Shown here one piece after another: positions 5,887 to 56,503 of a stretch of DNA of 64,000 nucleotides. The DNA comes from Chlorobiaceae bacterium (lineage in GTDB: Bacteria; Bacteroidota; Ignavibacteria; UBA10030; SZUA-254). A model generated the notes under the pieces. That model made no database searches. It had not been told where the DNA came from and saw only the letters and a list, made by a program, of their open reading frames with translations. Numbering within the stretch: position 1 is the first letter of the stretch; the number at the start of each line of letters is the position of its first letter. A program made the position numbers and the translations under genes. The stretch covers positions 13,202 to 77,201 of the forward strand of contig PNNN01000049.1 in NCBI GenBank assembly GCA_013824245.1, read 5' to 3'.

Positions 5887-7974
5887 ATGCTTTACAAAAA
5901 TCCAATTAAAGAATTGAAGCGTTATTTTAATATTCTGTTGGTTGGGTCAGTATGTTTTCTTTTGCTGAATTATTTTGATTTACTTAGTCTGCTAAATTTA
6001 TCATTCCTAAAAAACCGTGTTTATATATTCACGGTTCTCGTTTTTTCATACACAATCTGGGGTCGGGTATGTATTTTGAAGCTAAATAAAACGTGGCTCG
6101 ATTTTACAGTCCCACTTTTTTACACGATTCTCTTTTTTCTTTTCTTTCCAACCACTCAAATCTTTGATGATTCAGCCATCATCTTAAAATACATGGATAA
6201 TTTTGCGCGCGGATATTTCTATTCATACAATCCACAAGACGGACCGGTTTATGGTATCTCAAGTTTCATACACGGAGTTTTATCTGGGTTTTTTGCGTTC
6301 ACGCATTTGTTTTCGCCGCTGAATAGTATGCTTGCGAGCAATTTTATTGGACTCTTTATTGTTGGCTTTGTTTCTTTAAAGATTCTGCAGTATTACATCC
6401 ATGAAAACAGTTTTCTCTTTCCTGCCTGGATTCTGCTTATGCTTTCATCAGAATTTTTATTGATGAATTCCAAACAAGGACTGGAATCTCCAATACATCT
6501 CGCGATTGTCCTAACATGTTTCTTGAGTTATCTGTTTGAAAAAGAAAAAATGATGTGGCTGTTCTCTGTTTTGGCTGTGATATCAAAAACGGATGCGCTT
6601 CCGATCGTTTTTGCCTTATCGATGCTATATATTTTTAAAAACCGCGGATTATTAAACTCTCATTTATGGCGCACAACTGCGTTAAAAAGATTTCTTTTAT
6701 ATTTTATTTTGCCGTTGTTGGTTTGGATTGTGTTTAGTATCGCTGTCTTTGGCAGTCCGGTGCCGCAATCTGCGTACGCTAAATATTATTATCATAAAAG
6801 TTCGTCGTCTCATTGGTTCCCTTACCTCGAATCGTTATTTGCCGGGAAGAACATCTTAATCTTAATAGCATTAATGTTAAGCATTTTGATTTTCATTTCA
6901 TTCCTGGTATATAAAATTGTTAAGAAAAAATATCATGATATTGCATCAACATTCATTTATGGAATTTCTGCTTTTGCGTATATCATGCTTTATTATTTTT
7001 ATAACCCCGAAGAACGGATGGGGTGGTATTATGTTGTTCCAAGTTTCTTAATATCATTGCAAATGATAGTACTCGTATACGAGATTGGGAAAAACAAATT
7101 TGACGGTTATCCGATATTGACGGGAATAATATCTTTCCTCGTTTTATCTTTCGTGTATTTGCCTCACACTGAAGCGATGGTTGAAAGAGTAAATCGCACT
7201 TTATCCATCGTTGAAAGTGAGCGCATCGCAATTGGGTATTGGATAAAGGAGCGAAGTAATCCGGCTGATACACTTTTAACGGGCTTCGGACATATAGCGA
7301 GAAACTCAAATTTATACACTATCGATTATACCGGATTGAATTCTAAACTTGCCACCGATCTTCATTTAAATTTATCAAAAATAGTTCGCCTAACAGCACC
7401 ACGTTGGATAGCTGCAGATACCTTGCTGGATTGTAAAAACGGAGTTCATGCACAGTATGAACTTAAGAAATCTTTTTTTAATCTTGCTATGATGGGAAAA
7501 CAAACATGGAGAGTGTATGAAAGAACAACACCTAAAATATCTCAATATGAAATAGTGATCGACTCGAATATGCTGACCGGCAGCGGCAAGGTTGTGCGTC
7601 AGAAAGGTGGATTGAAATTCTCGGGGGATTCGTTGGTGCTCTCTGTTATCCCGGTACATACCCATGTATTACAATTTGTAGTGGGAATTATCAGGAAGGA
7701 AATGAATATCAATGTTAATCTTCAATTCACAGGGAAAGATAACGGTAAAATTATCGAGGAAAATATATTGCTTGAGAAGAGACGGGCAAACTCTTTTGTA
7801 GAAGGTTACACAAAGGAGTGTGTTGTTCGGGTAGATAAATTGTTTGAGGTAGGAAGAATCACTATCACTGCAATTGAAAATGGTGATCGCCCGGTATCCA
7901 TCGATCTTTTAGACCCTATATTAATAACACGAACTGATTTACGATCCATAATGAAAATTTGTAATTATCGATAA
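5887..7974 (+). CDS. Polytopic membrane protein, GT-C-like, with a C-terminal soluble domain
   Basis: 695 aa: many hydrophobic helices in the first ~430 aa, then a soluble tail. The function is not established. Confidence 0.6.
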   Translation: MLYKNPIKELKRYFNILLVGSVCFLLLNYFDLLSLLNLSFLKNRVYIFTVLVFSYTIWGRVCILKLNKTWLDFTVPLFYTILFFLFFPTTQIFDDSAIILKYMDNFARGYFYSYNPQDGPVYGISSFIHGVLSGFFAFTHLFSPLNSMLASNFIGLFIVGFVSLKILQYYIHENSFLFPAWILLMLSSEFLLMNSKQGLESPIHLAIVLTCFLSYLFEKEKMMWLFSVLAVISKTDALPIVFALSMLYIFKNRGLLNSHLWRTTALKRFLLYFILPLLVWIVFSIAVFGSPVPQSAYAKYYYHKSSSSHWFPYLESLFAGKNILILIALMLSILIFISFLVYKIVKKKYHDIASTFIYGISAFAYIMLYYFYNPEERMGWYYVVPSFLISLQMIVLVYEIGKNKFDGYPILTGIISFLVLSFVYLPHTEAMVERVNRTLSIVESERIAIGYWIKERSNPADTLLTGFGHIARNSNLYTIDYTGLNSKLATDLHLNLSKIVRLTAPRWIAADTLLDCKNGVHAQYELKKSFFNLAMMGKQTWRVYERTTPKISQYEIVIDSNMLTGSGKVVRQKGGLKFSGDSLVLSVIPVHTHVLQFVVGIIRKEMNINVNLQFTGKDNGKIIEENILLEKRRANSFVEGYTKECVVRVDKLFEVGRITITAIENGDRPVSIDLLDPILITRTDLRSIMKICNYR

Positions 7975-14863: not shown

Positions 14864-15994
14864 ATGCGTATCACACACGCCGAAATAGATGTTCAAAAAC
14901 TCCATCGTAATTACCTTAACACAAAAGGGGCATTGCCACCTGATGTGAAAGTGATGGGTATTGTAAAAGCTAATGCCTATGGACATGGAGTTCTGGAAAT
15001 ATCGAGGTTATTAACTGACTACGGAATCGATTATCTTGGGGTTGGTTTTTTAGAAGAAGGAATATATTTGAGGGAACATGGATTAACGGTTCCTATCTTA
15101 GTGTTGGGCGGTGTTCTGGATAATCAAATTCGTTCTTTCCTCGATAACAATCTTGATATTACCGTATCATCATTGGAGATTGCCGAGAGGATCGAACATG
15201 AAGTTGTCAGAGATAAAAATTTAAAAGCGCGGATTCATTTGAAAATTGATACGGGCATGGAACGGATTGGCGTTCATTCGGAGAATGCACTTCCATTTGT
15301 TGAACGGGTTTGCCGAATGAAGCATTTGGATGTGGTTGGAATTTATAGTCATTTCGCTTCAGCAGATGAGCGCGATAAGGCATTCACTCATTATCAGTTC
15401 GATCGCTTCCAATCGCTTCTGAAAAAGATTAATTCGATCGGAATCGATATCCCGTTAAAACATATTGCCAACAGTGGCGCATTAATAGATCTGCCCGAAA
15501 CTTATTTAACTATGGTGCGGCCCGGAATTATGTTGTATGGAATATATCCATCACTCGAAACAACAGAAAGTATTCTAATCGAACCGGTTCTCTCGCTAAA
15601 ATCGAAAATTGTTTTTATTAAAGAAGTTGCGGCAAATACAAGTGTCAGTTATGGAAGAAAATATTTTACATCAAAGCGCACAAAAATCGCGACCATCCCG
15701 GTTGGTTATGGAGATGGTTATAGCCGCCGACTTACGAACAACAGCGAGGTGTTGATTGCCGGTAAGCGATATCCGGTGATTGGAGTTGTTTGTATGGATC
15801 AAATGATGGTTGATATCGGATACGATGCGAGCATCCATGTCGGCGATGATGTAATACTTATCGGAGAATCTTCCGGCGAGAAAATCTCCGCATGGGAATT
15901 AGCAGAACGTGCCGGAACAAATCCGTACGAATTATTAACAGGCATCGCAACTCGCGTGCCTCGAGTATTCATTCATAAAAATGGAGGGAAGTAG
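14864..15994 (+). CDS. alr: Alanine racemase
   Basis: PLP-lysine motif VKANAYGHG; length and C-terminal domain are typical. Confidence 0.9.
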   Translation: MRITHAEIDVQKLHRNYLNTKGALPPDVKVMGIVKANAYGHGVLEISRLLTDYGIDYLGVGFLEEGIYLREHGLTVPILVLGGVLDNQIRSFLDNNLDITVSSLEIAERIEHEVVRDKNLKARIHLKIDTGMERIGVHSENALPFVERVCRMKHLDVVGIYSHFASADERDKAFTHYQFDRFQSLLKKINSIGIDIPLKHIANSGALIDLPETYLTMVRPGIMLYGIYPSLETTESILIEPVLSLKSKIVFIKEVAANTSVSYGRKYFTSKRTKIATIPVGYGDGYSRRLTNNSEVLIAGKRYPVIGVVCMDQMMVDIGYDASIHVGDDVILIGESSGEKISAWELAERAGTNPYELLTGIATRVPRVFIHKNGGK

Positions 15995-15997
15995 AAA

Positions 15998-17086
15998 ATG
16001 CCCAATGTATATGCAGTAATAATGGCAGGTGGAGTTGGAACGCGTTTCTGGCCCAGAAGCCGAGAAAAATCACCAAAACAACTTCTTGAGATTGTTGGCA
16101 AAGGGACGATGATTCAAAATACGGTAAACCGGATAAGTGATCTCATCGAACCGAAGAACATCATGGTTGTAACTAATAAAATTCAAAAACCGATGGTCAC
16201 TAAGCAGCTGCCGAATCTTCCGGAAGAAAATATCATAACCGAACCTATTGGCAGGAATACTGCGCCCTGTATTGGGCTTGCCGGACTATTTGTTAGGCGC
16301 ATAGACCCTGAAGCAGTGATGGTAGTTCTTCCAGCCGATCATATTATGCAAGATGAAGAAGAATTTAGGCGTCTGTTAAGATTAGCCACTTGGGTTGCTT
16401 ATGAATCGGGAAAGCTGGTAACTGTCGGAATTCAACCAACGCGCCCCGAAACAGGTTATGGTTACATACAAGTTATAGATGAGGATGACGGCAAAAATCC
16501 GTATTTTCAGAAAGGTGTTTTCAAAGTTAAAACATTTGCCGAGAAGCCAAATGTTGAAACGGCGAAGGTGTTTTTGGAGAGCGGTGATTTTGTTTGGAAC
16601 AGCGGCATGTTCATCTGGCGTGTAGATGCAATAATGCGTGAGATCGAAACTCATCTTCCGGAGATGTACCAAGAATTATTGAAAATTGATGATGCTATTG
16701 GTGCTGAAGATTACGATAATGTAGTTGAAACGACTTATAAAATTATTCGTGGAATTTCCATCGATTACGGTGTGATGGAAAAAGCCAAAGATGTTTATGT
16801 TTTGCGCGGAAATTTTGGATGGAGCGATGTCGGTTCGTGGGATGAAGTTTACAGAATAGCCGGCAAAGATGAAAATGGAAATTCGGTGACAGGACAGGCA
16901 TTTTTACATAATACGAAGAATACATTGGTATATTCCGGTACTAAAATAGTGGCGACCGTTGGCGTAGATGATCTGATCATAATTTCGACCGACGATGCTG
17001 TACTTGTTTGCAAACAGGGTCAATCGCAGGATGTCAAAGAAGCGGTCGATTATTTGCGTCGTAAACAAAAAGTTGACTATCTTTAA
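15998..17086 (+). CDS. Mannose-1-phosphate guanylyltransferase
   Basis: N-terminal MAGGVGTRFWPRSR nucleotidyltransferase motif; 362 aa. Confidence 0.8.
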   Translation: MPNVYAVIMAGGVGTRFWPRSREKSPKQLLEIVGKGTMIQNTVNRISDLIEPKNIMVVTNKIQKPMVTKQLPNLPEENIITEPIGRNTAPCIGLAGLFVRRIDPEAVMVVLPADHIMQDEEEFRRLLRLATWVAYESGKLVTVGIQPTRPETGYGYIQVIDEDDGKNPYFQKGVFKVKTFAEKPNVETAKVFLESGDFVWNSGMFIWRVDAIMREIETHLPEMYQELLKIDDAIGAEDYDNVVETTYKIIRGISIDYGVMEKAKDVYVLRGNFGWSDVGSWDEVYRIAGKDENGNSVTGQAFLHNTKNTLVYSGTKIVATVGVDDLIIISTDDAVLVCKQGQSQDVKEAVDYLRRKQKVDYL

Positions 17087-46015: not shown

Positions 46016-48199
46016 TTGAATAAGATAACTGTTGTAATATTGCTTGTTTTAGTTTTGTTTGGTTGTTCGACTGAGAAATCGCTCAGATCGCCCGATCAAT
46101 CATTGCCACCTAACCTCCCCCCAATTAATGCCGCCTTCATAGACACATTATCGAAGGAAGAGATGGGATCGGCAATTAATGATAGTTTGATTGCAGATTC
46201 TACTTATGACGAATTAACCGGACAATTACTTGAAGCGGCACGCCAACATTACCTGAACGCATTAAATGCCGAGCAAGTTGGTGATTCTATTCAAAGCGTC
46301 AGTGAATTTGAATATGCTATCGGAATTTTAAACGAGCTTGCATTCTATTCAAATATTGAAAACAACCCGGATTTTAACGACCTATCTCATAGTCTTGTAG
46401 AAGATTATGAAAAATATATTGCTAATATCGATAGTTTAGGGTCTCAAACATCAATTTTTGCACTACGGCAAAAATTAAATGAACTTGATGAGTCACAGCC
46501 GGGTCAGGGTCAGGACGAAGATGCAACAATAAAAGTTATAACTACAACTTCTGTTCCGCTTGTTATTAACGGTCATGTTGAGAAGAATATAGAATTTTTC
46601 TGTGGTAAGGGAAGAAGACATTTTGAACATTGGTTGTACAAAGGCGGTTTCTATTTTCCGATGATGAGAAAAATCTTTAGGGAAGAAGGAGTACCGGAAG
46701 AGCTAATGCATCTTTCGATGGTTGAAAGCGGCTTGAATCCGATTGCCCGTTCGTGGGCGAAAGCAGTTGGAATATGGCAATTCATTAAAGGCACAGGGAA
46801 GTTGTACGGACTTCAGGGAAATTTTTGGTTTGATGAAAGAAGAGATTTTGAAAAAGCAACTAAAGCGGCGGCTCGTCATCTTAAAGATCTGTACACTGAA
46901 TTTGGGGATTGGTATTTAGCGCTTGCTGCGTACAATTCTGGAGCCGGAAGAGTTTTTCGCGCGATAAGAAAAAGCGGTTCAAAAGATTTTTGGAAACTAC
47001 GACCCTTCCTTCCAAAAGAAACAAGAAATTATGTTCCGCAATATATCGCTGTTACGGCGATGGCGCTTGATCCGGAAGGATATGGATTTTCCGTGGTTCC
47101 TTCAGAATCGTTAGCGTTTGATTATGTGAATGTTGATGGTTCGCTAGATTTGTCTGTCCTCGCGAAATGTGCCGATACGGATGTGGGAACTTTAAAAGAT
47201 TTAAACCCGGAATTATTACGCTGGTGTACGCCACCCGGTATGAATGATTATAAACTCAGAATCCCTGCTGGGAAACAATCAATCTTTTCAGAAAACTATA
47301 CTGCTATCCCATCGAGCGAAAAACGCGATTGGATCGTTCACAAAGTCCGCAAGCGCGAATCGCTTGCGTCCATCGCGAAACGATATGGAATTACAAGCGA
47401 TATGATTGTTGAAGCAAATAGATTACCTTCTAAAGCAATAAAGGCAGGAAAAGAGTTGATAATTCCCGTCCCAGAGACTGCGAATAAATATCTCGCTTCG
47501 ATCACCGATGAAAGCAGTGACAAAAGAGGGAAGTCCAATAGTGTAGAGCGCGTTAATATATCGGAGAGAAAAAAAGGGAAATCGAAAATTTCGTATCGTA
47601 TTCGCAAAGGAGATACACTTGGAAAGTTAGCCGAGTGGTTCGATGTTCGTATCTCTGATCTTAGGATTTGGAATGGAATTCCTTACGGAAGCTCAATAAG
47701 GGCAGGCGGAAAATTGACAATGTGGGTACCCAAAGAACGCGCGGAAGAAGTTACTAGCTTGAGCAACGCATCAGAAATTGAACACGATAAAATGCTTTCA
47801 TCTGGCGAAATGGAATCAAAAAGATATTCGGAAAAAAAACATGCCGGTTCTTATTGGGCAAAATATAAAATCAAATCCGGCGATAACCTCGGAAGCATAG
47901 CGAAAAAGTATGGTGTAGCAATCGAAGACCTTAGAAAATGGAACGGTTTTACTTCCTCATCGATTCAGGCAGGACAGATTATCGAAGTATTGATCGAAGG
48001 AAATGGCTCAACTTCATCCATGGCGGCAGCAAGTGATACAGGCAAAAATAAAAAAGGAGTTACTTACACGGTGAGACGCGGGGACACGCTTGAAAAAATC
48101 GCCTCAACATTCGGAGTTACCATCGAACAACTACGCAACTGGAATAAACTTCGGACATCAAGAATAGTTATTGGGCAAGAGTTGTTCATCAATTCATAA
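46016..48199 (+). CDS. mltD: MltD-like membrane-bound lytic murein transglycosylase with multiple LysM domains
   Basis: TTG start, lipobox LFGC, SLT core (MVESGLNP...AVGIWQF...AYNSGAG), then four LysM-like repeats (H/Y.V..G..L..IA..Y). Confidence 0.8.
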   Translation: MNKITVVILLVLVLFGCSTEKSLRSPDQSLPPNLPPINAAFIDTLSKEEMGSAINDSLIADSTYDELTGQLLEAARQHYLNALNAEQVGDSIQSVSEFEYAIGILNELAFYSNIENNPDFNDLSHSLVEDYEKYIANIDSLGSQTSIFALRQKLNELDESQPGQGQDEDATIKVITTTSVPLVINGHVEKNIEFFCGKGRRHFEHWLYKGGFYFPMMRKIFREEGVPEELMHLSMVESGLNPIARSWAKAVGIWQFIKGTGKLYGLQGNFWFDERRDFEKATKAAARHLKDLYTEFGDWYLALAAYNSGAGRVFRAIRKSGSKDFWKLRPFLPKETRNYVPQYIAVTAMALDPEGYGFSVVPSESLAFDYVNVDGSLDLSVLAKCADTDVGTLKDLNPELLRWCTPPGMNDYKLRIPAGKQSIFSENYTAIPSSEKRDWIVHKVRKRESLASIAKRYGITSDMIVEANRLPSKAIKAGKELIIPVPETANKYLASITDESSDKRGKSNSVERVNISERKKGKSKISYRIRKGDTLGKLAEWFDVRISDLRIWNGIPYGSSIRAGGKLTMWVPKERAEEVTSLSNASEIEHDKMLSSGEMESKRYSEKKHAGSYWAKYKIKSGDNLGSIAKKYGVAIEDLRKWNGFTSSSIQAGQIIEVLIEGNGSTSSMAAASDTGKNKKGVTYTVRRGDTLEKIASTFGVTIEQLRNWNKLRTSRIVIGQELFINS

Positions 48200-48310
48200 T
48201 ATTTATCCCATCTAGAGTTTTCGCTCATTCACTTAGTTATTGTTTTTCTTCCCCATTTTTTGTAGATTATCAAAGCATTTTCAATACTCGTTATTCTTTT
48301 TTTACTTTTT

Positions 48311-48340
48311 TGCGCCGGAGGCGCATCCGCCTCCGGCGGA
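48311..48340. repeat. Two tandem 15-nt GC-rich mini-hairpins (may act as the mltD terminator)
   Basis: TGCGCC-GGA-GGCGCA then TCCGCC-TCC-GGCGGA, between a T-run and AATTTTT. They can alternatively fold as one 11-bp stem, CGCCGGAGGCG-CATC-CGCCTCCGGCG. Confidence 0.7.
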
Positions 48341-48356
48341 AATTTTTAATTGATCC

Positions 48357-48479
48357 GGAAAGGTGTCTGAGTTCCGCCAAAAGAATGGCGGATAAAGGTT
48401 GTCCCGAAGGGATTCCTTCGGAAAAAGATCCGGTCTCTTAGCTGTTAAAACAGGTGAAAAAGTTAGCGCAGAAGATTGG
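48357..48479 (+). pseudogene. Degenerate tRNA-Ser 5' portion (acceptor 5' strand through anticodon arm) with hairpin inserts in the D-loop and anticodon loop
   Basis: GGAAAGGTGTCTGAGT [TCCGCC-N8-GGCGGA] TAAAGGTTG [TCCCGAAGG-GATT-CCTTCGGA] AAAAGATCCGGTCTC [insert] GAAGATTGG, versus live-gene GGAGAGGTGTCTGAGTGGTTGAAAGAGCCGGTCTCGAAAACCGG. Confidence 0.7.
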
Positions 48480-48573
48480 CATACGTTTTTGATAAAATGT
48501 GTTGAACAATAGGGTTTCGTTTCTAAAGAAAAGATGTATATTTTTACTTTTTCATTTTTACTTTTTAATTGTT

Positions 48574-48632
48574 GGAGAGGTGTCTGAGTGGTTGAAAGAG
48601 CCGGTCTCGAAAACCGGTGTAGGCGCAAGTCT
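48574..48632 (+). pseudogene. Clean 59-nt copy of tRNA-Ser(CGA) nt 1-59 (left attachment-site repeat of the island)
   Basis: Identical to 55824-55882. Identity stops inside the variable arm, and the integrase gene follows 88 nt later. Confidence 0.85.
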
Positions 48633-48673
48633 TATTCACTTTCTAATTTGATTTTCCGCATTTAAAATTCCTC

Positions 48674-48694
48674 TGGTTACCAATGTGGTTACCA
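48674..48694 (+). promoter_or_regulatory. Direct TGGTTACCA repeats (candidate integrase arm-type sites)
   Basis: TGGTTACCA at 48674-48682 and 48686-48694. Related GTGGTTGC / TGGTTACC motifs lie at 55751-55771 near the other island end. Confidence 0.35.
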
Positions 48695-48719
48695 CTTGCC
48701 TTGAAAAGCGAGGTTCACC

Positions 48720-49739
48720 ATGTTTCTTTCTAAGCGTTCCAACGGTATCTACTATCTCTGGTATTTTGATGAAGGTGGTAGAAAACATAAAGTTTCTACG
48801 GGCTGTAATCTCAAATCCGATGCTGTTAAGTTTCTCAGAGATTTTAATGAGAATGCTTCTTACCGAAAATCCCGCATTACTCTTAAAACCCTCAAAGAAT
48901 TTCATTCCGATTATCAAACATATTCAAAAAGTGTTCATACCTTAAAAACTCAACAATCGATTGATAGTGCATTTAGAGAGCTTCAAAGGATTGTAGGTGA
49001 TATAATGCATAATAAAATCGGAATTCGTGAAATAGAAAGCTTCCTTGCTCAAAAGAAAGCTGAAGCATCTGAGTGGACAGCAAGAAAATATTATATCTCT
49101 CTTGCAAGTGCTTTCGAAACAGCGAAGCGGTGGAATTACATTTCAATAAATCCATTTCGTAAAGTTCAAAAACCCAAAACAAGTGAGGTTCAACCTGTAT
49201 ATCTCAATAAAGAGGATATGACATCTTTGCTGGGAAAAGTAACCGATATCCAATGCAAGAATTTATTTCTGGTAGCTGTATTGACTGGATTAAGGCTTGG
49301 TGAGCTTCTAAATCTTCAATGGAGCGATATAGATTTGATTAAAAAAGTTATCTACATAAAGAACAGAGAAACCTTTTCAACCAAGAACCGGAAAAATAGA
49401 GTTGCTCCAATAAATGAACAACTTCTCAACGTACTTATTTTAATGAAAGAGAATGCAAGTTCCGAAATCGTTTTCCATTCTAAGGGGAAACATCTCAAGC
49501 CAAATTGGATTTCAAAAGCGTTTAAAGGTTATGTTCTTAAAACTGGATTAAATGAGAAACTCCACTTCCACAGCTTACGGCATACATTTGCTTCATGGTT
49601 AGTTCAGGATGGAGTTTCTTTGTACGAGGTGCAGAAGTTACTTGGGCATTCAAATATATCGGTTACTCAGGTCTATTCTCATTTACAGCCGGAAACATTA
49701 CACTCAACTGTGAATAAGATTTCTTTGCAATTAAATTGA
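48720..49739 (+). CDS. int: Tyrosine recombinase / phage-type integrase
   Basis: C-terminal catalytic region with RLGELLNL ... HSLRHTFASWL ... LLGHSNISVTQVYSH (R, H-x-x-R, H, Y). Confidence 0.92.
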   Translation: MFLSKRSNGIYYLWYFDEGGRKHKVSTGCNLKSDAVKFLRDFNENASYRKSRITLKTLKEFHSDYQTYSKSVHTLKTQQSIDSAFRELQRIVGDIMHNKIGIREIESFLAQKKAEASEWTARKYYISLASAFETAKRWNYISINPFRKVQKPKTSEVQPVYLNKEDMTSLLGKVTDIQCKNLFLVAVLTGLRLGELLNLQWSDIDLIKKVIYIKNRETFSTKNRKNRVAPINEQLLNVLILMKENASSEIVFHSKGKHLKPNWISKAFKGYVLKTGLNEKLHFHSLRHTFASWLVQDGVSLYEVQKLLGHSNISVTQVYSHLQPETLHSTVNKISLQLN

Positions 49740-49851
49740 TTTACTTCCTGAATATTTGTACATTTTGGGGAATTTATATTCTCACAAATGTTCACTGAGT
49801 TATTATATCAAACTTTAAATTTATCTTGGGGATAAATAGGAAAGGTAAAAT

Positions 49852-50265
49852 ATGAAGTATTTTTTAAGTGTAATATCAGCGATTATGGTTCTATTGGTTA
49901 GTTGTTCAAAAGAACCAACTGTTGGAGAATGGTACGAACATATACCAACCAAGGAGAGAGTTAAGGTTGAATTTGTCGGAGATGGGTTTGCTGTTGGGAA
50001 AAAGTATTTATGGAAGTTGGAGTTGGCAAAAGAACATAGAGATAAAATGGTTCACGAACTTGATAGTCTTAATACCCTGCTTTTTTGTGATGAAGGCGAT
50101 AAAGAATGGCGTTTAAAATTCTACAATGAAGACTTGGAGGAATGTGCGCTCTGGGATGTCGGCAGTTCAGATAAAAGATATGTAGTTGTAAATCTCAAAT
50201 TGTTTCATCTCAAATTGTTTTCTTTGGAGAAATTCAATGCAGATTTTGCAAGGATACTTCGATGA
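49852..50265 (+). CDS. Hypothetical lipoprotein (island cargo)
   Basis: Lipobox LVSC; 137 aa. Confidence 0.6.
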   Translation: MKYFLSVISAIMVLLVSCSKEPTVGEWYEHIPTKERVKVEFVGDGFAVGKKYLWKLELAKEHRDKMVHELDSLNTLLFCDEGDKEWRLKFYNEDLEECALWDVGSSDKRYVVVNLKLFHLKLFSLEKFNADFARILR

Positions 50266-50301
50266 AAAAGAAAAACAAATCATTCAAGCGGAGGTAAAAA
50301 T

Positions 50302-50712
50302 ATGAAGTATTTTATTATCCTCTTTCTAATTGTTTTATTTTATAAGCCACTCAACGGACAAGACAAATCGAAAGAATTAAGTTATCAGAAAAGTTTTATG
50401 GAATATGAGGACACAAAAAAAGATAAGGCATCAGCACTTATTTGGCTGTCAATTATTCCGGGCGGTGGTATGTGGTATGCAGAGACAAACGGTTTATTTT
50501 TTCTTGGAAGTGAAATCGTTTTAGCTTCTTTATATATAGGTACAAAAGAAAATTTCTGGTTGGCGGGTTTGACTGCTATGAAATTATATGAGGTGTATTA
50601 TACATTCAGCGTGGTTGATGATTATAACCAGAACTTGCTCAAAGAATTGAAAATGGATTTATCATATAACAATCAACGCGGAATAGTTTATTCACTTTCT
50701 TTTAATTTTTAA
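50302..50712 (+). CDS. Hypothetical membrane protein (island cargo)
   Basis: Signal peptide plus two hydrophobic helices; GGAGG SD. Confidence 0.6.
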   Translation: MKYFIILFLIVLFYKPLNGQDKSKELSYQKSFMEYEDTKKDKASALIWLSIIPGGGMWYAETNGLFFLGSEIVLASLYIGTKENFWLAGLTAMKLYEVYYTFSVVDDYNQNLLKELKMDLSYNNQRGIVYSLSFNF

Positions 50713-50726
50713 ATGAACAAGGAATT

Positions 50727-51206
50727 ATGAAAAATTTAATAATTATCATTTTATCTTTGATCTTAATTTCCTGTGGACATTCATATTTCCCCGCATCTGT
50801 TAGGGAAATAGACAACACAAAAACATTTCAAATGAGTTATGAGCAGACATGGATGAAAATTATCGATTGGTTTGCTCTTCATAATACACCAATCAAAACA
50901 ATTGATAAAGCTTCTGGCTTGATTGCCAGTGATTATGAACTTGGATCAACATCGAAGTATTGCGACTGCGGAAGAGTGAATAGCGATTTCTTTCTTAGGT
51001 TGTCAATCGAAGAGTATTCCGGGAATATCAATATTCTTGTCCGGAAATTATCCGATGATACAACACGAGTAACGATATCTACTTTTTTCAGTGCTGTAAA
51101 AAAGATTTATGACAACATGGATCACAGATACCTCCGCGACGAGAAAATTAAATGTTATTCGAGCGGATTGTTAGAACAGGATATATTTCATTCGATATCA
51201 AAATGA
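50727..51206 (+). CDS. Hypothetical lipoprotein (island cargo)
   Basis: Lipobox LISC; 159 aa. Confidence 0.6.
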   Translation: MKNLIIIILSLILISCGHSYFPASVREIDNTKTFQMSYEQTWMKIIDWFALHNTPIKTIDKASGLIASDYELGSTSKYCDCGRVNSDFFLRLSIEEYSGNINILVRKLSDDTTRVTISTFFSAVKKIYDNMDHRYLRDEKIKCYSSGLLEQDIFHSISK

Positions 51207-51313
51207 TGCGTAAGAAAACTAAACCATTCAAGGGAACTGATAAGATCAATGTGAAAGACGTAACCGTTGGCGCCGATCATAAAACCGTGTATGGCAAAAA
51301 CTCCGATGTGATA

Positions 51314-51466
51314 GTTGGCGGGTTTGACTGCGATGAAATTATATGAAGTGTATTATACGTTCAGCGTGGTTGATGATTATAACCAGAACTTGCTCAAAGA
51401 ATTGAAAATGGATTTATCCTACAATCAACAAAGGGGCGTGGTTTATTCGATCTCTCTTAATTTATG
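51314..51466 (+). pseudogene. Startless duplicate of the 3' third of gene 50302..50712
   Basis: Direct repeat of 50559-50712. It encodes ...AGLTAMKLYEVYYTFSVVDDYNQNLLKELKMDLSYNQQRGVVYSISLNL* with no upstream start. Confidence 0.7.
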
Positions 51467-51686
51467 AGTACGCTTTACTTCAAAGGCAATTGGAAGGTAT
51501 TACACATCTTTTTCAATCAAAGATAGTTAAAGATTTATTTGCATTCTCCTTATATCTCTTCGTATATTTAATAAAGCAATTTCCGAATATATTGCTGACA
51601 AAAATTTAATCCTCTACTCGTTCACTTTGGGTGAAACCGATGCAATCGGTTCGGAAGCGAGTGGGGGATTTTTATTATAAGTCATC

Positions 51687-52307
51687 ATGAAAAAGAAACA
51701 TATTGTTCCTTACGATGGAGAACTTCTTACGATTGATACTATTGGCAAAGAAGATGAAGGAAAAACATTAGCATTTCGTAATCAGGTTCACAATTGTTGT
51801 CAGAAGAAATTTGATAGTTTCTTTAAAACATTTTTGAATATGTGCGCAATTTCGGAGAAAGGAGAACTTGAACAACAGAAGAATGATTTATATGTTAACT
51901 TCTTTCTGAAAGTTAATGAAAGAATATTTCAAATTATTACGCCAGCGACAGAAGATATTACTGATGATTATAAGCGTGGTAAAAAAAGATTAGAGATGCA
52001 AGAGAGAATAGACGTTGAAACATTAGTCAATGAAACACCGCTGATTTTATCACCATTGTTAAAAAATATTCTGAGGAAAAATCAGGATCGGTCAACGCAG
52101 ATGAGTGGGAAAAAAGTTTCAAAAGAACGAGAAGAATTATACTCGATAATTCACAATGAATTGAACGCTGAGGGGAAAAAACCAAAATCTAAAAGAAGAA
52201 GAAAAAGTACAATCATAAATAATTTATGCAACAGTAATCCATTATTCAAAAATGAAAATCCTACCAAATTGAGAAAAGCATACGATAGGATTGAAAGCAA
52301 GAAATGA
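51687..52307 (+). CDS. Hypothetical basic protein (island)
   Basis: 206 aa with a Lys/Arg-rich C-terminus. No family was recognised. Confidence 0.55.
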   Translation: MKKKHIVPYDGELLTIDTIGKEDEGKTLAFRNQVHNCCQKKFDSFFKTFLNMCAISEKGELEQQKNDLYVNFFLKVNERIFQIITPATEDITDDYKRGKKRLEMQERIDVETLVNETPLILSPLLKNILRKNQDRSTQMSGKKVSKEREELYSIIHNELNAEGKKPKSKRRRKSTIINNLCNSNPLFKNENPTKLRKAYDRIESKK

Positions 52308-52316
52308 AAAATAGTT

Positions 52317-52359
52317 TCTACTATACCTATAGTAGAATTCTACTTATGCCATAGTAGAA
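52317..52359. promoter_or_regulatory. Two adjacent palindromic operator-like sites sharing the half-site TCTACT
   Basis: TCTACTATA-CC-TATAGTAGA (52317-52336) and TTCTACT-N7-TAGTAGAA (52338-52359). Confidence 0.4.
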
Positions 52360-52507
52360 ATATCCTTTTATAGATTAAAGTATATCGAGTGAGAATTAGT
52401 TACTCAATTACTTTAGCTTAAATTGAAATATGAGCCGAAATCTTGATTGAATATGCTAAAGGTTCAATTAAGCTCTTTCGGTTTTTTATTCCTTAAGGAG
52501 TAAAAAT

Positions 52508-52930
52508 ATGTTTCAACAAATATTAACAGTAACACGGTCAGGCAAAGTATTACTTACCCTTCCAAATAAAGAGTATAAATCACGCCGGCATATTGGAGAT
52601 GTTATCGAAAACACTCTCCATGTTAAACGTGATCCCACAAGGCATTTCTTTAATCGATTTAATGGATATGGTTTCTGCTATGAGTTGATGAGGGATGGAA
52701 GTTTTGAAAGGGTTGTCGTTCACCTTCCCTTCGGTAAAACACTTGTAACTACAAGGAAGCACATTTTAGCGAAAGGGAAAATACTGAATTTTCAAAAGAA
52801 CAAACTGGAAAAGCAGATATATTTATCATTAGATGATTATGGGCTTGACAAGGCGAGAGAAAGTGAGATGAATAGTATTCCAACTAAACTAATCGATCCA
52901 CAGCTCTCAATTTTCGGAGGTATCCAATGA
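52508..52930 (+). CDS. Hypothetical protein (island), overlapping the helicase start
   Basis: AAGGAG SD; 140 aa; 4-nt overlap (ATGA) with the next gene. Confidence 0.6.
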   Translation: MFQQILTVTRSGKVLLTLPNKEYKSRRHIGDVIENTLHVKRDPTRHFFNRFNGYGFCYELMRDGSFERVVVHLPFGKTLVTTRKHILAKGKILNFQKNKLEKQIYLSLDDYGLDKARESEMNSIPTKLIDPQLSIFGGIQ

Positions 52931-54282
52931 ATATTTCGAGACAAGATATTGAAGAAAGAATAATTGGACAGCTTCTCTTCGATGGTAAGAAAGCAACATT
53001 GGAAGCGTGTAGCATCGTTGATGAAATAGATTTTTCGGATCCGGCTTGTTCAATTCTCTTTGGTGTTTGCGTTGCACTCGTTTCACAACATAAAAGTGTT
53101 GATGCTTTGAGTGTTCATCAGTTTTTGCAGAATAATACCGAGAAGCTTGGCACTCATTTCCAGAAATTATCATCTTTGACAGATGCAAAAACAACAATTA
53201 CTAATTTGATCCTGAAAGCTACAGACATCTCTTGCATGTATGCAACAAGAGGTTACTCAAATGATTTAATCATCAACTGTAAATACCTCAGACAAGAGAA
53301 TGAACGAAAGAAAGCTCAAGAGATAATTTTATCAGCCGGAACGAAGCTGAATGATGGAATTGAAGTTGAAACGGTAATCGAAGAGGCAACAAAAGAACTG
53401 ATTACACTTTCAGCGAAATCACAAAACATTAAAAGCTACACTCATTTGGAAGATGCTTTTAATGAAGCAATAAAGGAAACAGAGGATGAAATCGCTGGCA
53501 AGGTTGTAAGATTATCAACAGGTTTCTCAGAGCTTGATAGTATTATCTATGGACTTGAAAAAGGTCGATTGTACTGTATTGCAGCGGAGGAAAAGATCGG
53601 TAAAAGTTTATTGAGTTATCAGATCGGTTTGAATAGTGCTACGAAAGGAAATCCATCAACCATTATTTCAATGGAGATGAAAGCTTCAGAGATTGCCAAA
53701 CGATTTGCAGGAGTGAACAGCGGTCAAGAAGCATTGCATCGATTGAATGCACTCAAAAAATTCAAAGCTGAAATTGGCAGTTATCCTCTTTTCATTCGAG
53801 ATGGTTCAGCTAATCAAGGGAAGGTGTTTATCACAACCCATAAGCTATATGCTGAAAAACGGATTGAGCTTTTGATTGTTGACTATCTTCAGTTGATCGA
53901 ATTGCAAGGAAGAGATAGAACGAATGATGTGAACGAATTTGTGAGTAAGCTGAAAGGCATGGCAATGGATTTAAATATTCCTATCGTTCTTATCTCGGCT
54001 GTATTGAATAAACAGTTAAGCTATAGAAACAATAGGAAACCAACTCCGGCTGACTTGCGTGATACAGGCAGGCTTGCCAATGATGCTGACTGTTTGATAT
54101 TCATCTGGAAACCTGATGAACAAGATGAGAGCTACCTTGAGTTATTTGTTGCACGTTCACGGTACTCAAAACTTGGAAGGATCGGTTTATCTCTCAATCC
54201 AGAGACATTAAAACTCTCACAGACAGAACTTCGAGATTTGGATGGTAGTTCTAACCAGTCAACAGAGTTTAAACGGTTCTGA
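52927..54282 (+). CDS. DnaB-like replicative helicase
   Basis: DnaB N-terminal domain pattern (IEERIIGQLLFDG...), TGFSELDSII, Walker A variant EEKIGKS, IVDYLQL, and DLRDTGRLANDADCLIFI. Confidence 0.8.
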   Translation: MNISRQDIEERIIGQLLFDGKKATLEACSIVDEIDFSDPACSILFGVCVALVSQHKSVDALSVHQFLQNNTEKLGTHFQKLSSLTDAKTTITNLILKATDISCMYATRGYSNDLIINCKYLRQENERKKAQEIILSAGTKLNDGIEVETVIEEATKELITLSAKSQNIKSYTHLEDAFNEAIKETEDEIAGKVVRLSTGFSELDSIIYGLEKGRLYCIAAEEKIGKSLLSYQIGLNSATKGNPSTIISMEMKASEIAKRFAGVNSGQEALHRLNALKKFKAEIGSYPLFIRDGSANQGKVFITTHKLYAEKRIELLIVDYLQLIELQGRDRTNDVNEFVSKLKGMAMDLNIPIVLISAVLNKQLSYRNNRKPTPADLRDTGRLANDADCLIFIWKPDEQDESYLELFVARSRYSKLGRIGLSLNPETLKLSQTELRDLDGSSNQSTEFKRF

Positions 54283-54290
54283 GGTGATAT

Positions 54291-54926
54291 ATGCAGGGAT
54301 GGATAAAACTTTATCGATCTACTCAAGGAAATGAGTTCTACTTTTCTGAAAGGTTTACCAAAGCACAAGCTTGGATTGACCTTTTACTATTGGCAAATCA
54401 TAAACCGGCTACAATCTTTCTTCGAGGTGTTGAGGTGCATCTTGGTAAGGGTGATTTAGCATACAGTCAAATTTCACTTGCGAAACGATGGAAATGGAAT
54501 GAACGAACCGTCAACAAGTTTTTAACTATGCTTGAAAAGAGGCAAATGATACAGAGCAGAAAATCCAACATAACGACCGTGATTTCGATAATTAACTACA
54601 CTTTGTATCAAAGCAGTACAGAACAGAGTACAGTACAGAATACAGAGCAAAGTACGAGCAGAATACAGACAGACAAGAATGATAAGAATGAAGAGAATGT
54701 TTTTGTTGAGCAGCTAATATCCTACTTAAAAGAAAACAATATTCACTTTGATGAAGGTAATTTAAGGGGAAGGATCACCAAAGCCCTGAACACCTATGAA
54801 GAAAATATTATCCGATACGCTGTAAACGATGCAGTAGAGAGTTGGAAGAAAAACGGGAACGAGGGAAATTTTGTCGCATATTTATTCACTATTTTGGAGC
54901 ATAACTATCAAGAGGCTGAACCATGA
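54291..54926 (+). CDS. Replication-organizer / DnaD-like winged-helix protein (tentative)
   Basis: N-terminus WIKLYRS...AQAWIDLLLLAN...GDLAYSQISLAKRWKWNERTVNKFLTMLEKRQMI resembles phage replication-protein wHTH domains. Confidence 0.5.
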   Translation: MQGWIKLYRSTQGNEFYFSERFTKAQAWIDLLLLANHKPATIFLRGVEVHLGKGDLAYSQISLAKRWKWNERTVNKFLTMLEKRQMIQSRKSNITTVISIINYTLYQSSTEQSTVQNTEQSTSRIQTDKNDKNEENVFVEQLISYLKENNIHFDEGNLRGRITKALNTYEENIIRYAVNDAVESWKKNGNEGNFVAYLFTILEHNYQEAEP

Positions 54927-55114
54927 ATGAAGATACTACCGATAACAGAGACAAGATTGAAGATATATTTTTATTCACAGCTCAAGAGGTGAGCGAAAAA
55001 GCATACGAGAAATATAGCTCAGGCGAAATATCACAAGCTGAATTGGCTGAAATCTATCACCTGTTAAAACATTGGACATTAGAAAGCGAACAACTCCTAA
55101 AGATATTACAATAA
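54923..55114 (+). CDS. Hypothetical 63-aa protein (island)
   Basis: 4-nt overlap with the upstream gene; acidic. Confidence 0.45.
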   Translation: MNEDTTDNRDKIEDIFLFTAQEVSEKAYEKYSSGEISQAELAEIYHLLKHWTLESEQLLKILQ

Positions 55115-55129
55115 TTTGAAGGACATACA

Positions 55130-55546
55130 ATGAAAGACACGCAAACAAAGAACCGATTTATTGAACTCCGGTCACAGGGTATTAGCTACGAGAAGATAGC
55201 AACGGAACTCAAGGTATCTAAACAGACATTGATAAATTGGAGTAAAGAATTACAGCTTGAAATACTGAACTTACGTGCAATCCAACTTGAGGCACTTCAG
55301 GAAAAATACTTCCTTACAAAAGAAAAGAAAGTCGAGTTCATTGGCAATATATTGAATTCATTGAAGGCTGAGGCTGACAAACGAGATTTATCTAAACTAT
55401 CAGATCGAGAACTTTTTGAACTCATTTTGAAATATTCAGAGAAGTTAGACAAGGAAATAGTACCAGTTACTTTCATGGCTGAAGAAGAAAGAAGTTTAAT
55501 CGATTATGATACGACTGTAACGGATAGGAAAACATGGTCAGCGTAA
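55130..55546 (+). CDS. HTH-domain protein with a coiled-coil tail (regulator or small-terminase-like; unresolved)
   Basis: GISYEKIATELKVSKQTLINW is a helix-turn-helix. The rest is predicted helical. Confidence 0.5.
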   Translation: MKDTQTKNRFIELRSQGISYEKIATELKVSKQTLINWSKELQLEILNLRAIQLEALQEKYFLTKEKKVEFIGNILNSLKAEADKRDLSKLSDRELFELILKYSEKLDKEIVPVTFMAEEERSLIDYDTTVTDRKTWSA

Positions 55547-55694
55547 TGGAGACCGTTTCTTGACCCTTTTTTGACTGGTTGAGTTCTCTGACACCAAAAA
55601 AAGAGATTGAGTTTATTTCTGGAATTTCGTATATTTATATCGACTTAAAGAGCAACTTCCACAAAAGAAGAAGAAATCGAACTCGTAAGAGTTG

Positions 55695-55740
55695 AACGCC
55701 AAGAATAAAGGTGTGGAAGCCTGCTCACTTGGCGTTTTTA
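55695..55740 (+). terminator. Rho-independent terminator inside the island's right end
   Basis: AACGCCAAG ... CTTGGCGTT stem followed by TTTT. Confidence 0.6.
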
Positions 55741-55823
55741 ATTTTGACAGGTGGTTGCTTTTTTGGTTACCTTGAAGTAATTAAAACAGGATTTTCACGA
55801 AGGTCAAATTATGAATTTTGTTT

Positions 55824-55910
55824 GGAGAGGTGTCTGAGTGGTTGAAAGAGCCGGTCTCGAAAACCGGTGTAGGCGCAAGTCTATCGAGAGTTCGAATCTC
55901 TCCCTCTCCG
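55824..55910 (+). tRNA. tRNA-Ser (anticodon CGA), class II with a long variable arm; no encoded CCA
   Basis: Acceptor GGAGAGG/CCTCTCC, anticodon arm CCGGT-CTCGAAA-ACCGG, variable arm TGTAGGCGCAAGTCTATC, T arm GAGAG-TTCGAAT-CTCTC. Closely resembles E. coli tRNA-Ser. Confidence 0.95.
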
Positions 55911-55913
55911 CTT

Positions 55914-56180
55914 ATGTGCTCTGTATATGTGATTTGGAGTGAAAAGCTGAAGAAGCGATATATTGGATCGACTGAGGATGTTGATAAAAGATTGAATCAG
56001 CATAATAGCGGCAAAACTCCATTTACTAGCAGAGGAATTCCATGGAATAAAATTCATGTCGAAAAATATAGTTCAATCATTGAAGCACGAGCTAGAGAGA
56101 GATTTTTGAAAAGCGGTAAGGGAAGAGAGTGGTTAGATAAAATGTACCCTGACCTGAGAAAGAAAGATGTTGTATGTTAA
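55914..56180 (+). CDS. Small stand-alone GIY-YIG nuclease-domain protein (88 aa)
   Basis: VYVIWS...RYIGSTEDVDKRLNQHNSG...PW...EARARERFLKSGKGREWL is the GIY-YIG/URI pattern. The ATG lies 3 nt after the tRNA discriminator. The ORF-track N-terminus (55818-55913) is the tRNA. Confidence 0.8.
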   Translation: MCSVYVIWSEKLKKRYIGSTEDVDKRLNQHNSGKTPFTSRGIPWNKIHVEKYSSIIEARARERFLKSGKGREWLDKMYPDLRKKDVVC

Positions 56181-56193
56181 AAGAGCCGGTCTC

Positions 56194-56248
56194 TCAGCCA
56201 GAGGCTGATGCGCCTTCCGCCATTAAGATAGGCGGACAAGTCGGCGCA
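56194..56248. repeat. 55-nt hairpin block inserted between anticodon nt C34 and G35
   Basis: TCAGCC-AGAG-GCTGA, then TGCGCC-[T TCCGCC-ATTAAGATA-GGCGGA CAAGTC]-GGCGCA (one hairpin nested in the loop of another). Confidence 0.85.
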
Positions 56249-56283
56249 GAAAACCGGTGTAGGCGCAAGTCTATCGAGAGTTC

Positions 56284-56313
56284 TGAGCCTACGGCTCATC
56301 CGCCTAAGGCGGA
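56284..56313. repeat. 30-nt hairpin block inserted between T-loop nt C56 and G57
   Basis: TGAGCC-TAC-GGCTCA then TCCGCC-TAA-GGCGGA. Confidence 0.85.
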
Positions 56314-56503
56314 GAATCTCTCCCTCTCCGCCAAACTGTGTTCCGATAAATCGGAACTTCGTTTGGCAAGTATAACCAACGAAGCTCTGAAGGAGCGTAG
56401 TTGGTCATCTCCGCCGATGTTTTAAAAAAATAATTTATTCTAACAGTTTAAATATTTTAAATCATTTCAATTATTTCAATCCTAAAATCATTCTAACTGA
56501 ATT

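Follow-up and report, generated by a model that had tools for sequence, protein, structure and literature searches.

A decaying tRNA-Ser(CGA) remnant with hairpin insertions beside a putative tRNA-replacing GIY-YIG cassette

This article concerns a tRNA-Ser locus of a Chlorobiaceae bacterium, seen in a window of 64,000 nucleotides (nt) of contig PNNN01000049.1 (the whole stretch of DNA that was analysed), and in particular positions 48311-48479 of that window, where pieces of a broken tRNA gene alternate with short GC-rich hairpins. It is well supported that this stretch is the left side of the native tRNA-Ser(CGA) gene, that is, its displaced and decaying 5' part. It is also well supported that a small cassette has invaded the locus, bringing a replacement tRNA-Ser together with an 88-amino-acid (aa) GIY-YIG nuclease of the UPF0213/SLX1-like kind, and that the present order is left pseudo-tRNA, spacer, working tRNA, GIY-YIG gene, right pseudo-tRNA, with an unrelated integrative island in the working tRNA. 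As to how this arrangement came about, we favour, with moderate confidence, a homing-like cassette that replaces tRNA genes and is accompanied by family-specific hairpins in the tRNA copy that has become redundant; this mechanism is predicted from sequence comparison.

The displaced tRNA gene and the cassette next to it

The original prediction equated positions 48357-48479 (plus strand) with tRNA-Ser nt 1 to ~43, and its coordinates were all borne out by direct reading and by alignment with the tRNA-Ser(CGA) that ARAGORN calls at 55824-55911. The tRNA-derived segments are GGAAAGGTGTCTGAGT at 48357-48372 (15/16 identical to tRNA nt 1-16), GGTTG at 48397-48401 (5/5 against nt 17-21), AAAAGATCCGGTCTC at 48423-48437 (nt 22-35, apart from one mismatch and an additional A) and GAAGATTGG at 48471-48479 (6/9 against tRNA GAAAACCGG, nt 36-43). 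They are colinear and in order, and the likeness ends after ~nt 43, as expected of a tRNA pseudogene or displaced fragment; neither ARAGORN nor Rfam calls a tRNA here. The three interruptions that had been described, after T16, at 20/21 and in the anticodon, can all be seen in the alignment. The first, h1 (48373-48396, plus strand), is a D-loop insertion after tRNA T16 that consists of TCCGCCA-AAAGAA-TGGCGGA and TAAA, and its hairpin (48373-48392) folds as DNA with z = -4.6 relative to shuffled sequences. The second, h2 (48402-48422, plus strand; z = -3.0), has a CCGAAGG-GATT-CCTTCGG core and lies in the D loop at tRNA 20|21, with a boundary that may equally be placed at T20|G21. The third is block B' (48438-48470, plus strand), a 33-nt anticodon insertion after GGTCTC, which is a decayed copy of the end of a block in the right pseudo-tRNA and has lost its fold (z = -0.4). 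The D-loop insertions had been assigned to the same hairpin class as those of the right-hand copy. Of these, h1 recurs in two relatives (L012 and L093), and h2 is not of the GCC-N3-GGC type; in relatives the h2 site does hold a GCC-N3-GGC hairpin pair (L010, the second pseudo-tRNA of L012, and L093).

Further upstream there is a double 15-nt hairpin, TGCGCC-GGA-GGCGCA and TCCGCC-TCC-GGCGGA (48311-48340, plus strand; both perfect, z = -4.8), which interrupts the native upstream, promoter-proximal region of the pseudo-tRNA. Its flanks align with what lies natively upstream of the gene in relatives (TTGTTTTTCTTCCCC..GTAGATTATCA) and with the sequence upstream of the clean copy, which confirms the earlier view that these two hairpins lie inside otherwise native sequence. 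The pseudo-tRNA itself is at the native position of the gene: alignment A2 shows its upstream flank to be colinear with that of the clean tRNA-Ser in L003 and L001. On its other side is a spacer (48480-48571, plus strand) with two more copies of the promoter-proximal TTTTTACTTTTT motif, directly upstream of the clean tRNA 5' copy; no GIY-YIG remnant was detected in these ~95 nt. The left pseudo-tRNA was thought to be the older of the two, and indeed about 5 mismatches and 1 indel fall within its 44 tRNA-derived nt, versus 0 in nt 36-88 of the right one, and its anticodon block has no hairpins remaining.

Direct reading of 48100-48800 and 55600-56500 finds three tRNA-Ser-like sequences, one of which is called by ARAGORN and Rfam. 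This is the working tRNA-Ser(CGA) at 55824-55911 (plus strand; Rfam tRNA, 59.6 bits), which is free of hairpins and ends in ..CCGCT, the encoded CCA of the native end being absent. The GIY-YIG gene (55914-56180, plus strand) begins 2 nt past it and has its stop codon within the D-loop-like part of the right pseudo-tRNA. Its 88-aa product is a catalytic domain only: Pfam PF01541 (E = 4.7e-15) spans residues 1-69, and the catalytic residues are conserved, with Y5, Y16, G18, R26, H30, E62 and others invariant among 22 homologues (alignment A1). The nearest solved structures are UPF0213 BH0048 and EF2693 (PDB 1zg2 and 1ywl; E = 1.5e-12 and 5.5e-11), with SLX1 (E = 2e-5) and then I-TevI next; NCBIfam, PHROGs and Pfam label the protein no more specifically than as a GIY-YIG protein or homing endonuclease.

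The right pseudo-tRNA (56176-56333, plus strand) consists of tRNA-Ser nt ~21-88 and an encoded CCA, with a 55-nt block (block B) in the anticodon and a hairpin pair in the T loop. Weak likeness to tRNA nt 1-20 reaches back to ~56162, within the 3' end of the GIY-YIG gene, and the 3' flank, CCGCCAAACT, is identical to the native flank of the L001 tRNA. The T-loop pair, TGAGCC-TAC-GGCTCA and TCCGCC-TAA-GGCGGA, lies at GTTC|GAAT (56284-56313, plus strand; z = -5.3). In a census of the window, which has a GC content of 36-40%, perfect GC-rich hairpins of this class are restricted to the two pseudo-tRNA clusters, and the 30-nt pairs have z values of -4.5 to -5.3. As we read the alignments, the two pseudo-tRNAs are the two flanks of the cassette of GIY-YIG gene and replacement tRNA.

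The anticodon insertions connect the two pseudo-tRNAs. Their site, after GGTCTC, is indeed common to the left remnant and the copy at 56176, as had been claimed. Block B (56194-56248, plus strand; z = -4.5), inserted at TCTC|GAAA, consists of TCAGCC-AGA-GGCTGA followed by TGCGCC...GGCGCA, in whose loop TCCGCC-ATTAAGATA-GGCGGA-CAAG is nested. The block is identical in L004, and the same anticodon site holds simple 30-nt pairs in L006, L010, L012, L093, L099, L105, L107, L117 and L125. Block B' aligns without gaps with the last 33 nt of block B (56216-56248), with 22/33 positions identical; it still has the nested unit with its CAAG tail, as well as the outer hairpin's 3' arm. The differences had been described as mostly transitions, and 9 of the 11 are (7 of these in the GC>AT direction), the other 2 being transversions. 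The alignment score was reached by 0/2000 shuffles and 0/3000 random 33-mers from the window, i.e. the similarity of the inserts goes beyond chance, with none of 5000 controls as good. We also tried to explain B' as nt 36-60 of the tRNA itself, altered by small indels, and rejected this, since that alignment scores 8.75 versus 11.0 for the ungapped alignment with B (12.5 once the following tRNA bases are counted).

The proposed homology of the block edges therefore needs to be divided. The homology of the blocks stands on these controls, while the pairing of TTAGCT with TCAGCC at the 5' edge is probably wrong. Judging by the alignment, it is more likely that TTAGCT of B' corresponds to the nested TCCGCC arm, in which case the old copy is without the first 22 nt of the block. 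One could retain the TTAGCT/TCAGCC pairing by assuming a 22-nt deletion further in, which is possible but unneeded. Since both blocks have the same rare nested arrangement, common descent is the best explanation, and B' and B are best explained as descendants of one nested block. It follows that a hairpin-expanded pseudo-tRNA predates the separation of the copies, in line with the idea that the anticodon insertion came before the split.

Relatives of the locus and of the nuclease

The DegT gene downstream of the cassette has homologues at 84-86% identity, and through them we obtained contigs with the same LysM/SLT...DegT neighbourhood; the LysM/SLT protein, used as a query against genome contigs, found no relatives. 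Comparison with an empty locus had been suggested, and such loci do exist: L001 and L003 have a single clean tRNA-Ser at the same LysM...DegT site. The site is occupied in the window, L004, L006, L010 and L012, and thus shows presence/absence polymorphism. The order of parts varies among the occupied sites. In L006 it is 5' pseudo-tRNA, GIY-YIG gene, 5' pseudo-tRNA, tRNA, both pseudo-tRNAs carrying a hairpin pair in the anticodon. In L012 it is first pseudo-tRNA, GIY-YIG gene, second pseudo-tRNA, GIY-YIG gene, tRNA and a 3' pseudo-tRNA with a T-loop pair (TCAGCC-GTA-GGCTGA, TCCGCC-TCT-GGCGGA) that is orthologous to the pair in the window and differs from it by a compensated stem change. The first pseudo-tRNA of L012 has a 24-nt insertion (TCCGCCAGAAAAATGGCGGATAAA) after T16, as in the window, and AATTTTKAATTGAT upstream is also common to both; together with the pseudo-tRNA of L093 it is an orthologue of the left pseudo-tRNA.

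L093, a metagenome contig, contains a whole loop-expanded pseudo-tRNA-Ser as a single unit, with a D-loop hairpin after T16 (as h1), hairpin pairs at 20|21 and 35|36 and a further insert in the T loop; it ends natively, in ...CCGCCAAACT, with CCA. It is succeeded, after 19 nt, by a clean replacement tRNA-Ser whose T arm differs. The conjecture that a loop-expanded tRNA-Ser-like gene once existed as a unit has here its complete example, and the T16 hairpin of L012 agrees with it.

One may ask whether such sequences are functional RNAs, in which the hairpins act as processing or stability signals, the RNA is a scaffold or guide for the nuclease, or halves are joined via the palindromes, in the manner of archaeal split tRNAs. 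Such signals could punctuate a tRNA-GIY co-transcript, as RNase P or Z substrates or as 3' protective hairpins. It is true that the hairpins sit in loops and leave the tRNA helices intact, that a 7-bp/3-nt hairpin takes the place of the whole anticodon arm in L065, L045 and L055, and that stems at orthologous sites are preserved through compensated changes (TCA/TGA vs TGA/TCA; TGC/GCA vs TGT/ACA vs TCC/GGA). Co-transcription is implied by a GIY-YIG reading frame that begins 2 nt after one tRNA and ends within the next tRNA-like sequence, and shuffled versions of the L093 pseudo-tRNA are much less stable than the sequence itself (z = -8.1). However, the predicted fold of this complete unit shows no clean cloverleaf, so we claim no tRNA-like fold for it. 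Most pseudo-copies are truncated (to nt 1-48 or to the 3' third), which makes an acceptor stem impossible, the left pseudo-tRNA is decaying with all pairing in B' gone, and Rfam contains no family for these sequences: at permissive and gathering thresholds it returns tRNAs only, and nothing for the pseudo-tRNAs or either class of hairpin in the window. To our knowledge, bacteria also lack the archaeal splicing endonuclease. In our opinion a functional RNA is quite improbable.

A metagenome scan with the h1 pattern gave zero matches, and a broader anticodon-hairpin pattern gave 38 loci, 8 of them relevant and the remainder due to chance or to an unrelated repeat family. The recurrence of these structures bears on the question of whether faulty assembly or binning of a repeat-rich contig produced the locus. 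The source is a metagenome-assembled genome (MAG), and scaffold gaps do lie beside GIY-YIG arrays in other assemblies, which might raise suspicion. Nevertheless, the structures recur in independent NCBI, JGI, ENA and Logan assemblies, including the 99% identical L004 cassette, and orthologous hairpins are present in L012 and L093. An artefact is scarcely credible in this light.

Several comparisons speak for mobility. When the window is compared with L004, 503/508 positions agree in the cassette, measured from tRNA nt 1 through the right pseudo-tRNA, versus 905/1034 (87.5%) in the adjacent DegT gene. Other pairs give a mixed picture: L016/L017 are 88% identical in the cassette versus 80% in the flank, and for L040/L086 and L056/L057 the cassette alone aligns. 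In L012 and L093 the working tRNA has a foreign T arm and the displaced remnant keeps the native one. GIY-YIG lineages follow tRNA identity, the nearest neighbour of a nuclease being associated with a tRNA for the same amino acid in 45/68 cases versus ~10 expected. Among close relatives the gene order is sometimes reversed. Several features expected of a homing cassette are present: a nuclease with its catalytic residues, presence/absence polymorphism, and a cassette that is more similar than its flanks, with co-conversion.

The nuclease family was surveyed at 80 loci from GTDB representative genomes, retrieved with alignment A1, in Ignavibacteriota, Bacteroidota, Patescibacteria, Verrucomicrobiota, Acidobacteriota, Marinimicrobia, MAGs labelled Gammaproteobacteria, and others. 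In 72/80 loci a tRNA of the same strand, of many identities, lies within 500 nt of the nuclease gene, mostly within 50 nt, and in 60/80 there are extra fragments of that tRNA, commonly across the nuclease gene from it. Strict TSMGCC-N3-GGCKSA hairpins occur within 450 nt of the gene in 48/80 loci; their number is 87 in 86 kb of near sequence versus 18 in 272 kb of far sequence, the far ones being mostly in tRNA/GIY-related repeat arrays (L073, L021, L012). They are opposite the intact tRNA across the GIY-YIG gene in 54/68 loci, and no intact or working tRNA called in the survey has one inside it. The family as a whole can be written NNNGCC-N3-GGCNNN, mostly TSMGCC-N3-GGCKSA, often as 30-nt pairs and with a variant that ends in ACAAG. 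Taken together, these distributions indicate that the hairpins are specific to the GIY-YIG cassette family across phyla and are not generic repeats.

When inserts are located by their tRNA flanks alone, a stricter seed gives 25, almost all with such a hairpin, decayed in a few cases, and shorter seeds give 32 insertion events of ~20 distinct sequences. Insertion has mostly taken place at Y|GA within a D, anticodon or T loop, for example GGTT|GAAAG, TCTC|GAAAA, CTTT|GAAGC and GTTC|GAATC. The order of left pseudo-tRNA, tRNA, GIY-YIG gene and right pseudo-tRNA, with the same hairpin on both sides, is also found with tRNA-Asn (L043) and tRNA-Phe (L062). We considered a transposon with the hairpins as its terminal repeats; this fits L043, L062 and the window, but most loci have hairpins on just one side, and we rejected it.

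Some loci contain tandem arrays. A unit of tRNA-like sequence and GIY-YIG gene is repeated with a period of ~360 nt in L012 (2390-3200) and L073 (3480-4990), and arrays are also present in L055. L021 has tandem hairpin-bearing pseudo-tRNA-Gln units (2870-3280), and scaffold gaps of 100 N lie beside such arrays in L020, L046, L077 and L087.

A possible mechanism and comparison with known systems

If the element is homing-like, the cassette would spread through nuclease-stimulated, homology-directed recombination (homing-like or Campbell-type) by means of the tRNA sequence that it carries, and the target tRNA gene would be set by the tRNA homology arms instead of the tiny protein. We propose that, because the cassette brings an intact tRNA, the interrupted copy becomes free to decay. 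The hairpins may have two roles. By filling the Y|GA loop sites of insertion junctions they could make the redundant copy no longer a target, and by splitting its homology to the working tRNA into pieces of 14-36 nt they could impede loss of the nuclease gene through RecA. Unequal or Campbell-type recombination between units might give rise to tandem arrays and to the duplication into left and right pseudo-tRNAs.

A number of points weigh against this scheme. The working tRNA beside the nuclease retains the same Y|GA loop sequences, so a nuclease that simply cuts at Y|GA should cut the working tRNA too. In a domain test the 88-aa protein showed no DNA-binding or specificity domain besides GIY-YIG. 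Not every hairpin in the window obeys the rules: the upstream pair at 48311-48340 is inserted at T|AA, off the Y|GA rule, and h2 is GC-rich and T...A-bounded yet outside the GCC-N3-GGC type. L004 has the cassette and lacks both the left pseudo-tRNA and the integrative island, which complicates the chronology of the left flank. The surveyed loci are mostly MAG contigs, and the confinement of the hairpins to the cassette refers to the 64-kb window and about 270 kb of flanks. Finally, we infer homing and both hairpin roles from sequence.

The hairpins could also be miniature insertion units in their own right, actively copied in lengths of 15-30 nt into stem-loop tips by the GIY-YIG nuclease, or by host repair of its cuts, once the cassette has arrived. 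The targets would be tRNA loops at Y|GA and the triloops of the hairpins themselves, and the insertions would be tolerated by redundant copies only. This would explain why several hairpins occupy different loops of one pseudo-copy (the window, L010, L012, L021, L093), why hairpins are nested in hairpin loops (block B, L094), and why the target is consistently Y|GA. Unit types such as TCCGCC.., TGCGCC.. and ..GGCGGACAAG recur across tRNAs and phyla, an ACAAG-type unit in L066 is reversed, as judged by eye, and the hairpins of the left pseudo-tRNA are still perfect while its tRNA parts and B' have decayed. On the other hand, orthologous hairpins are old and stable: the window has the T16 hairpin in common with both L012 and L093, and the T-loop pair in common with L012. 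The near-identical cassettes of the window and L004 do not differ by a single hairpin, insertion is accompanied by no target-site duplication, and we know of no transposition chemistry for GIY-YIG enzymes. We regard independent insertion of miniature units as unlikely, though it is the main alternative.

It is tempting to go further and combine these ideas. UPF0213-like GIY-YIG proteins and GCC-N3-GGC hairpins might form an unrecognised class of bacterial mobile elements, in which the nuclease is structure-specific and has the stem-loop tips or cruciforms of tRNA genes as its substrate, the target is chosen by homology of the carried nucleic acid, and the 15-30-nt hairpins are cis-acting mobile or immunity modules that invade loop tips, including their own. 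UPF0213-type stand-alone GIY-YIG proteins would then have their first proposed role, and the mitochondrial double-hairpin elements a bacterial counterpart. We offer this as a tentative suggestion and consider it rather doubtful.

Turning back to the homing-like cassette that we favour, its nearest known counterparts may be the Seg proteins of T4-like phages, which are free-standing GIY-YIG homing endonucleases, SegB being located in the T4 tRNA gene cluster (PMC2330249, PMC13096335). In both systems an intron-free GIY-YIG gene stands beside tRNA genes, flanking tRNA sequence is co-inherited and mobility is inferred from presence/absence; Seg genes have been linked to segmental amplification, and here there are tandem arrays. 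However, Seg proteins exceed 200 aa and have DNA-binding domains, whereas here there is an 88-aa catalytic domain, and the elements described here are chromosomal, occur in many bacterial phyla and have their gene placed between an intact tRNA and a partial copy of it that hairpins interrupt. We know of no conserved hairpin family in Seg elements.

Paquin et al. (1994, 2000), cited in PMC2800124 and PMC4478555, reportedly described a mobile element in the mitochondrial atp6 gene of Allomyces as well as mitochondrial double-hairpin elements. As in the atp6 element, an endonuclease reading frame in a gene brings a partial replacement and the displaced native part stays behind. The likeness to double-hairpin elements, and to yeast mitochondrial GC clusters, is one of description: short GC-rich double hairpins in AT-rich DNA, situated in spacers and in the loops of structural RNA genes. 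Those elements are mitochondrial and dispersed genome-wide, whereas ours are bacterial (the neighbours include a type IX secretion system (T9SS) sorting domain, LysM/SLT and DegT), confined to the cassette, targeted to tRNA genes and subject to the Y|GA loop rule. With UPF0213/COG2827 proteins and SLX1 the nuclease shares a single GIY-YIG domain of ~80-100 aa and the best structure matches; SLX1 needs partner domains, and structure-specificity is putative here. For UPF0213 the literature searched gave no function or genomic association.

Archaea have multi-intron, split and permuted tRNA genes, such as the introns of Thermoproteales and the split tRNAs of Nanoarchaeum. These are similar in having inserts of ~15-30 nt at several non-canonical positions of the D, anticodon and T loops and GC-rich self-complementary break points. 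Unlike the sequences described here, archaeal copies are functional and are spliced by the bulge-helix-bulge (BHB) endonuclease; at our loci a clean copy is adjacent and many interrupted copies are truncated. Spliced introns do not fit the locus either, as a working tRNA is adjacent, the inserts are too short for a group I ribozyme and Rfam finds no intron match. We know of no tRNA splicing machinery of this kind in bacteria.

No description of a bacterial module of GIY-YIG gene, tRNA and hairpins was found in the full-text literature, subscription literature not being covered; the nearest work concerns T4 SegB, mitochondrial double-hairpin elements and SLX1. Relative to known homing-endonuclease-like cassettes that replace genes, the tRNA target, the minimal nuclease and the conserved hairpin component are new. 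If our reading is correct, the large family of stand-alone GIY-YIG proteins, for which we found no function, would gain a context, as parasites of tRNA genes that supply a spare tRNA. tRNA genes in many phyla could then be mosaics whose halves are exchanged laterally by a cassette of ~0.5 kb. The compact conserved hairpin signal and the simple target rule (Y|GA in stem-loop tips) would make site choice by a ~90-aa domain testable.

Such mosaics matter for annotation, since public gene calls run the nuclease open reading frame (ORF) through tRNA sequence. The calls P0122 and P0126 extend upstream through tRNA or pseudo-tRNA (N-terminal 'SEWLKEPVSKTG...'), and the real nuclease ORFs end within the next tRNA-like sequence (L006, 10001-10270; window, 56160-56180). 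The annotation of both tRNA and nuclease is affected when calls overrun tRNA sequence in this way.

The integrative island and other features of the locus

The working tRNA has itself been used as an integration site. A perfect direct repeat of 61 nt, which equals TT and tRNA-Ser nt 1-59, forms the left attachment site (attL, 48572-48632, plus strand) and is 100% identical to 55822-55882. Between the repeats lies a 7.2-kb island (48633-55821, plus strand) that encodes a tyrosine integrase (48720-49739), a DnaB-like helicase (52927-54282), a DnaD-like loader (54291-54926) and a helix-turn-helix (HTH) protein similar to the small subunit of terminase (55130-55546). The island looks like a phage satellite. 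That its repeat covers the 5' part of the tRNA (nt 1-59) is unusual for an attachment site in a tRNA. L004 has the same cassette but no island, and this absence, along with the perfect repeats at both ends, makes the island a separate and recent insertion. Two independent events, an old history of the GIY-YIG cassette and a recent integrase island, account for the three tRNA-Ser-like sequences and the GC-rich hairpins.

It might be argued instead that everything at this locus is ordinary integrase debris, i.e. tandem remnants of attachment sites, together with unrelated hairpins like those of repetitive extragenic palindromic (REP) elements, mobilised for example by a Y1 transposase of the REP-associated tyrosine transposase (RAYT) type. 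There is, after all, a genuine tyrosine-integrase island with a 61-nt direct repeat in the tRNA, a Y1_Tnp gene in the relative L002, and a second, REP-like class of hairpins downstream. As in other islands of this kind, whose attachment sites lie in anticodon and T loops, junctions are in loops, the gene is partially duplicated and restored, and displaced fragments are left behind. But duplication by an integrase holds for 48572-48632 and 55822-55882 and not for the pseudo-tRNAs, which bracket the tRNA and GIY-YIG gene and not the island; L004, L006, L010, L012 and L093 have pseudo-copies with no integrase, the fragments carry hairpins, and the units measure ~0.3-0.5 kb and form tandem arrays. 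The hairpins do resemble REPs and bacterial interspersed mosaic elements (BIMEs) in being short, GC-rich, imperfect, often paired and intergenic palindromes. Yet REPs are spread genome-wide and have a conserved GTAG-type head, whereas these hairpins go with the GIY-YIG family in 48/80 loci of unrelated phyla, are confined to the tRNA-Ser locus within the 64 kb and are rare in the distant flanks surveyed; a search of the window for a Y1 transposase (Y1_Tnp) found none. Integrase leftovers with unrelated hairpins are thus very improbable, and both this explanation and functional RNAs are less likely than miniature insertion units.

The second class of hairpins has the form stem1-GAAG-stem2-loop-stem2'-YRYA-stem1' and is present as an inverted pair at 56331-56404, just past the 3' end of the right pseudo-tRNA (~56331-56366 in minus sense, 56376-56404 in plus sense). 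The outer stems covary. Hairpins of this GAAG type are absent from the empty loci L001 and L003; they are also found in L004 (1017-1046), L012, L094, L099 and L125 and, by eye, in L006 and L010.

The unrelated repeat family met in the metagenome scan, ACAAGCCTTCACTGTCTCAGTGGCACTATTATACTC...GGTCTCTAAGCCACTGGCTAATCAT, occurs in at least 12 contigs (L091, L095, L102, L108-L112, L116, L119, L122, L124, L126), and two of its members have no Rfam match at the gathering threshold. In L002, the Y1_Tnp (IS200/RAYT-like) gene lies at 15994-16566 in the DegT neighbourhood, and the LysM gene and tRNA-Ser are lost there. L099 has a more distant, COG2827-type GIY-YIG gene (..KYFKTGSGK.., 6004-6243) at the same tRNA-Ser...DegT locus, adjoining a hairpin-bearing pseudo-tRNA-Ser and with GAAG-type hairpins on its flanks, which suggests that several GIY-YIG subfamilies may use this site.

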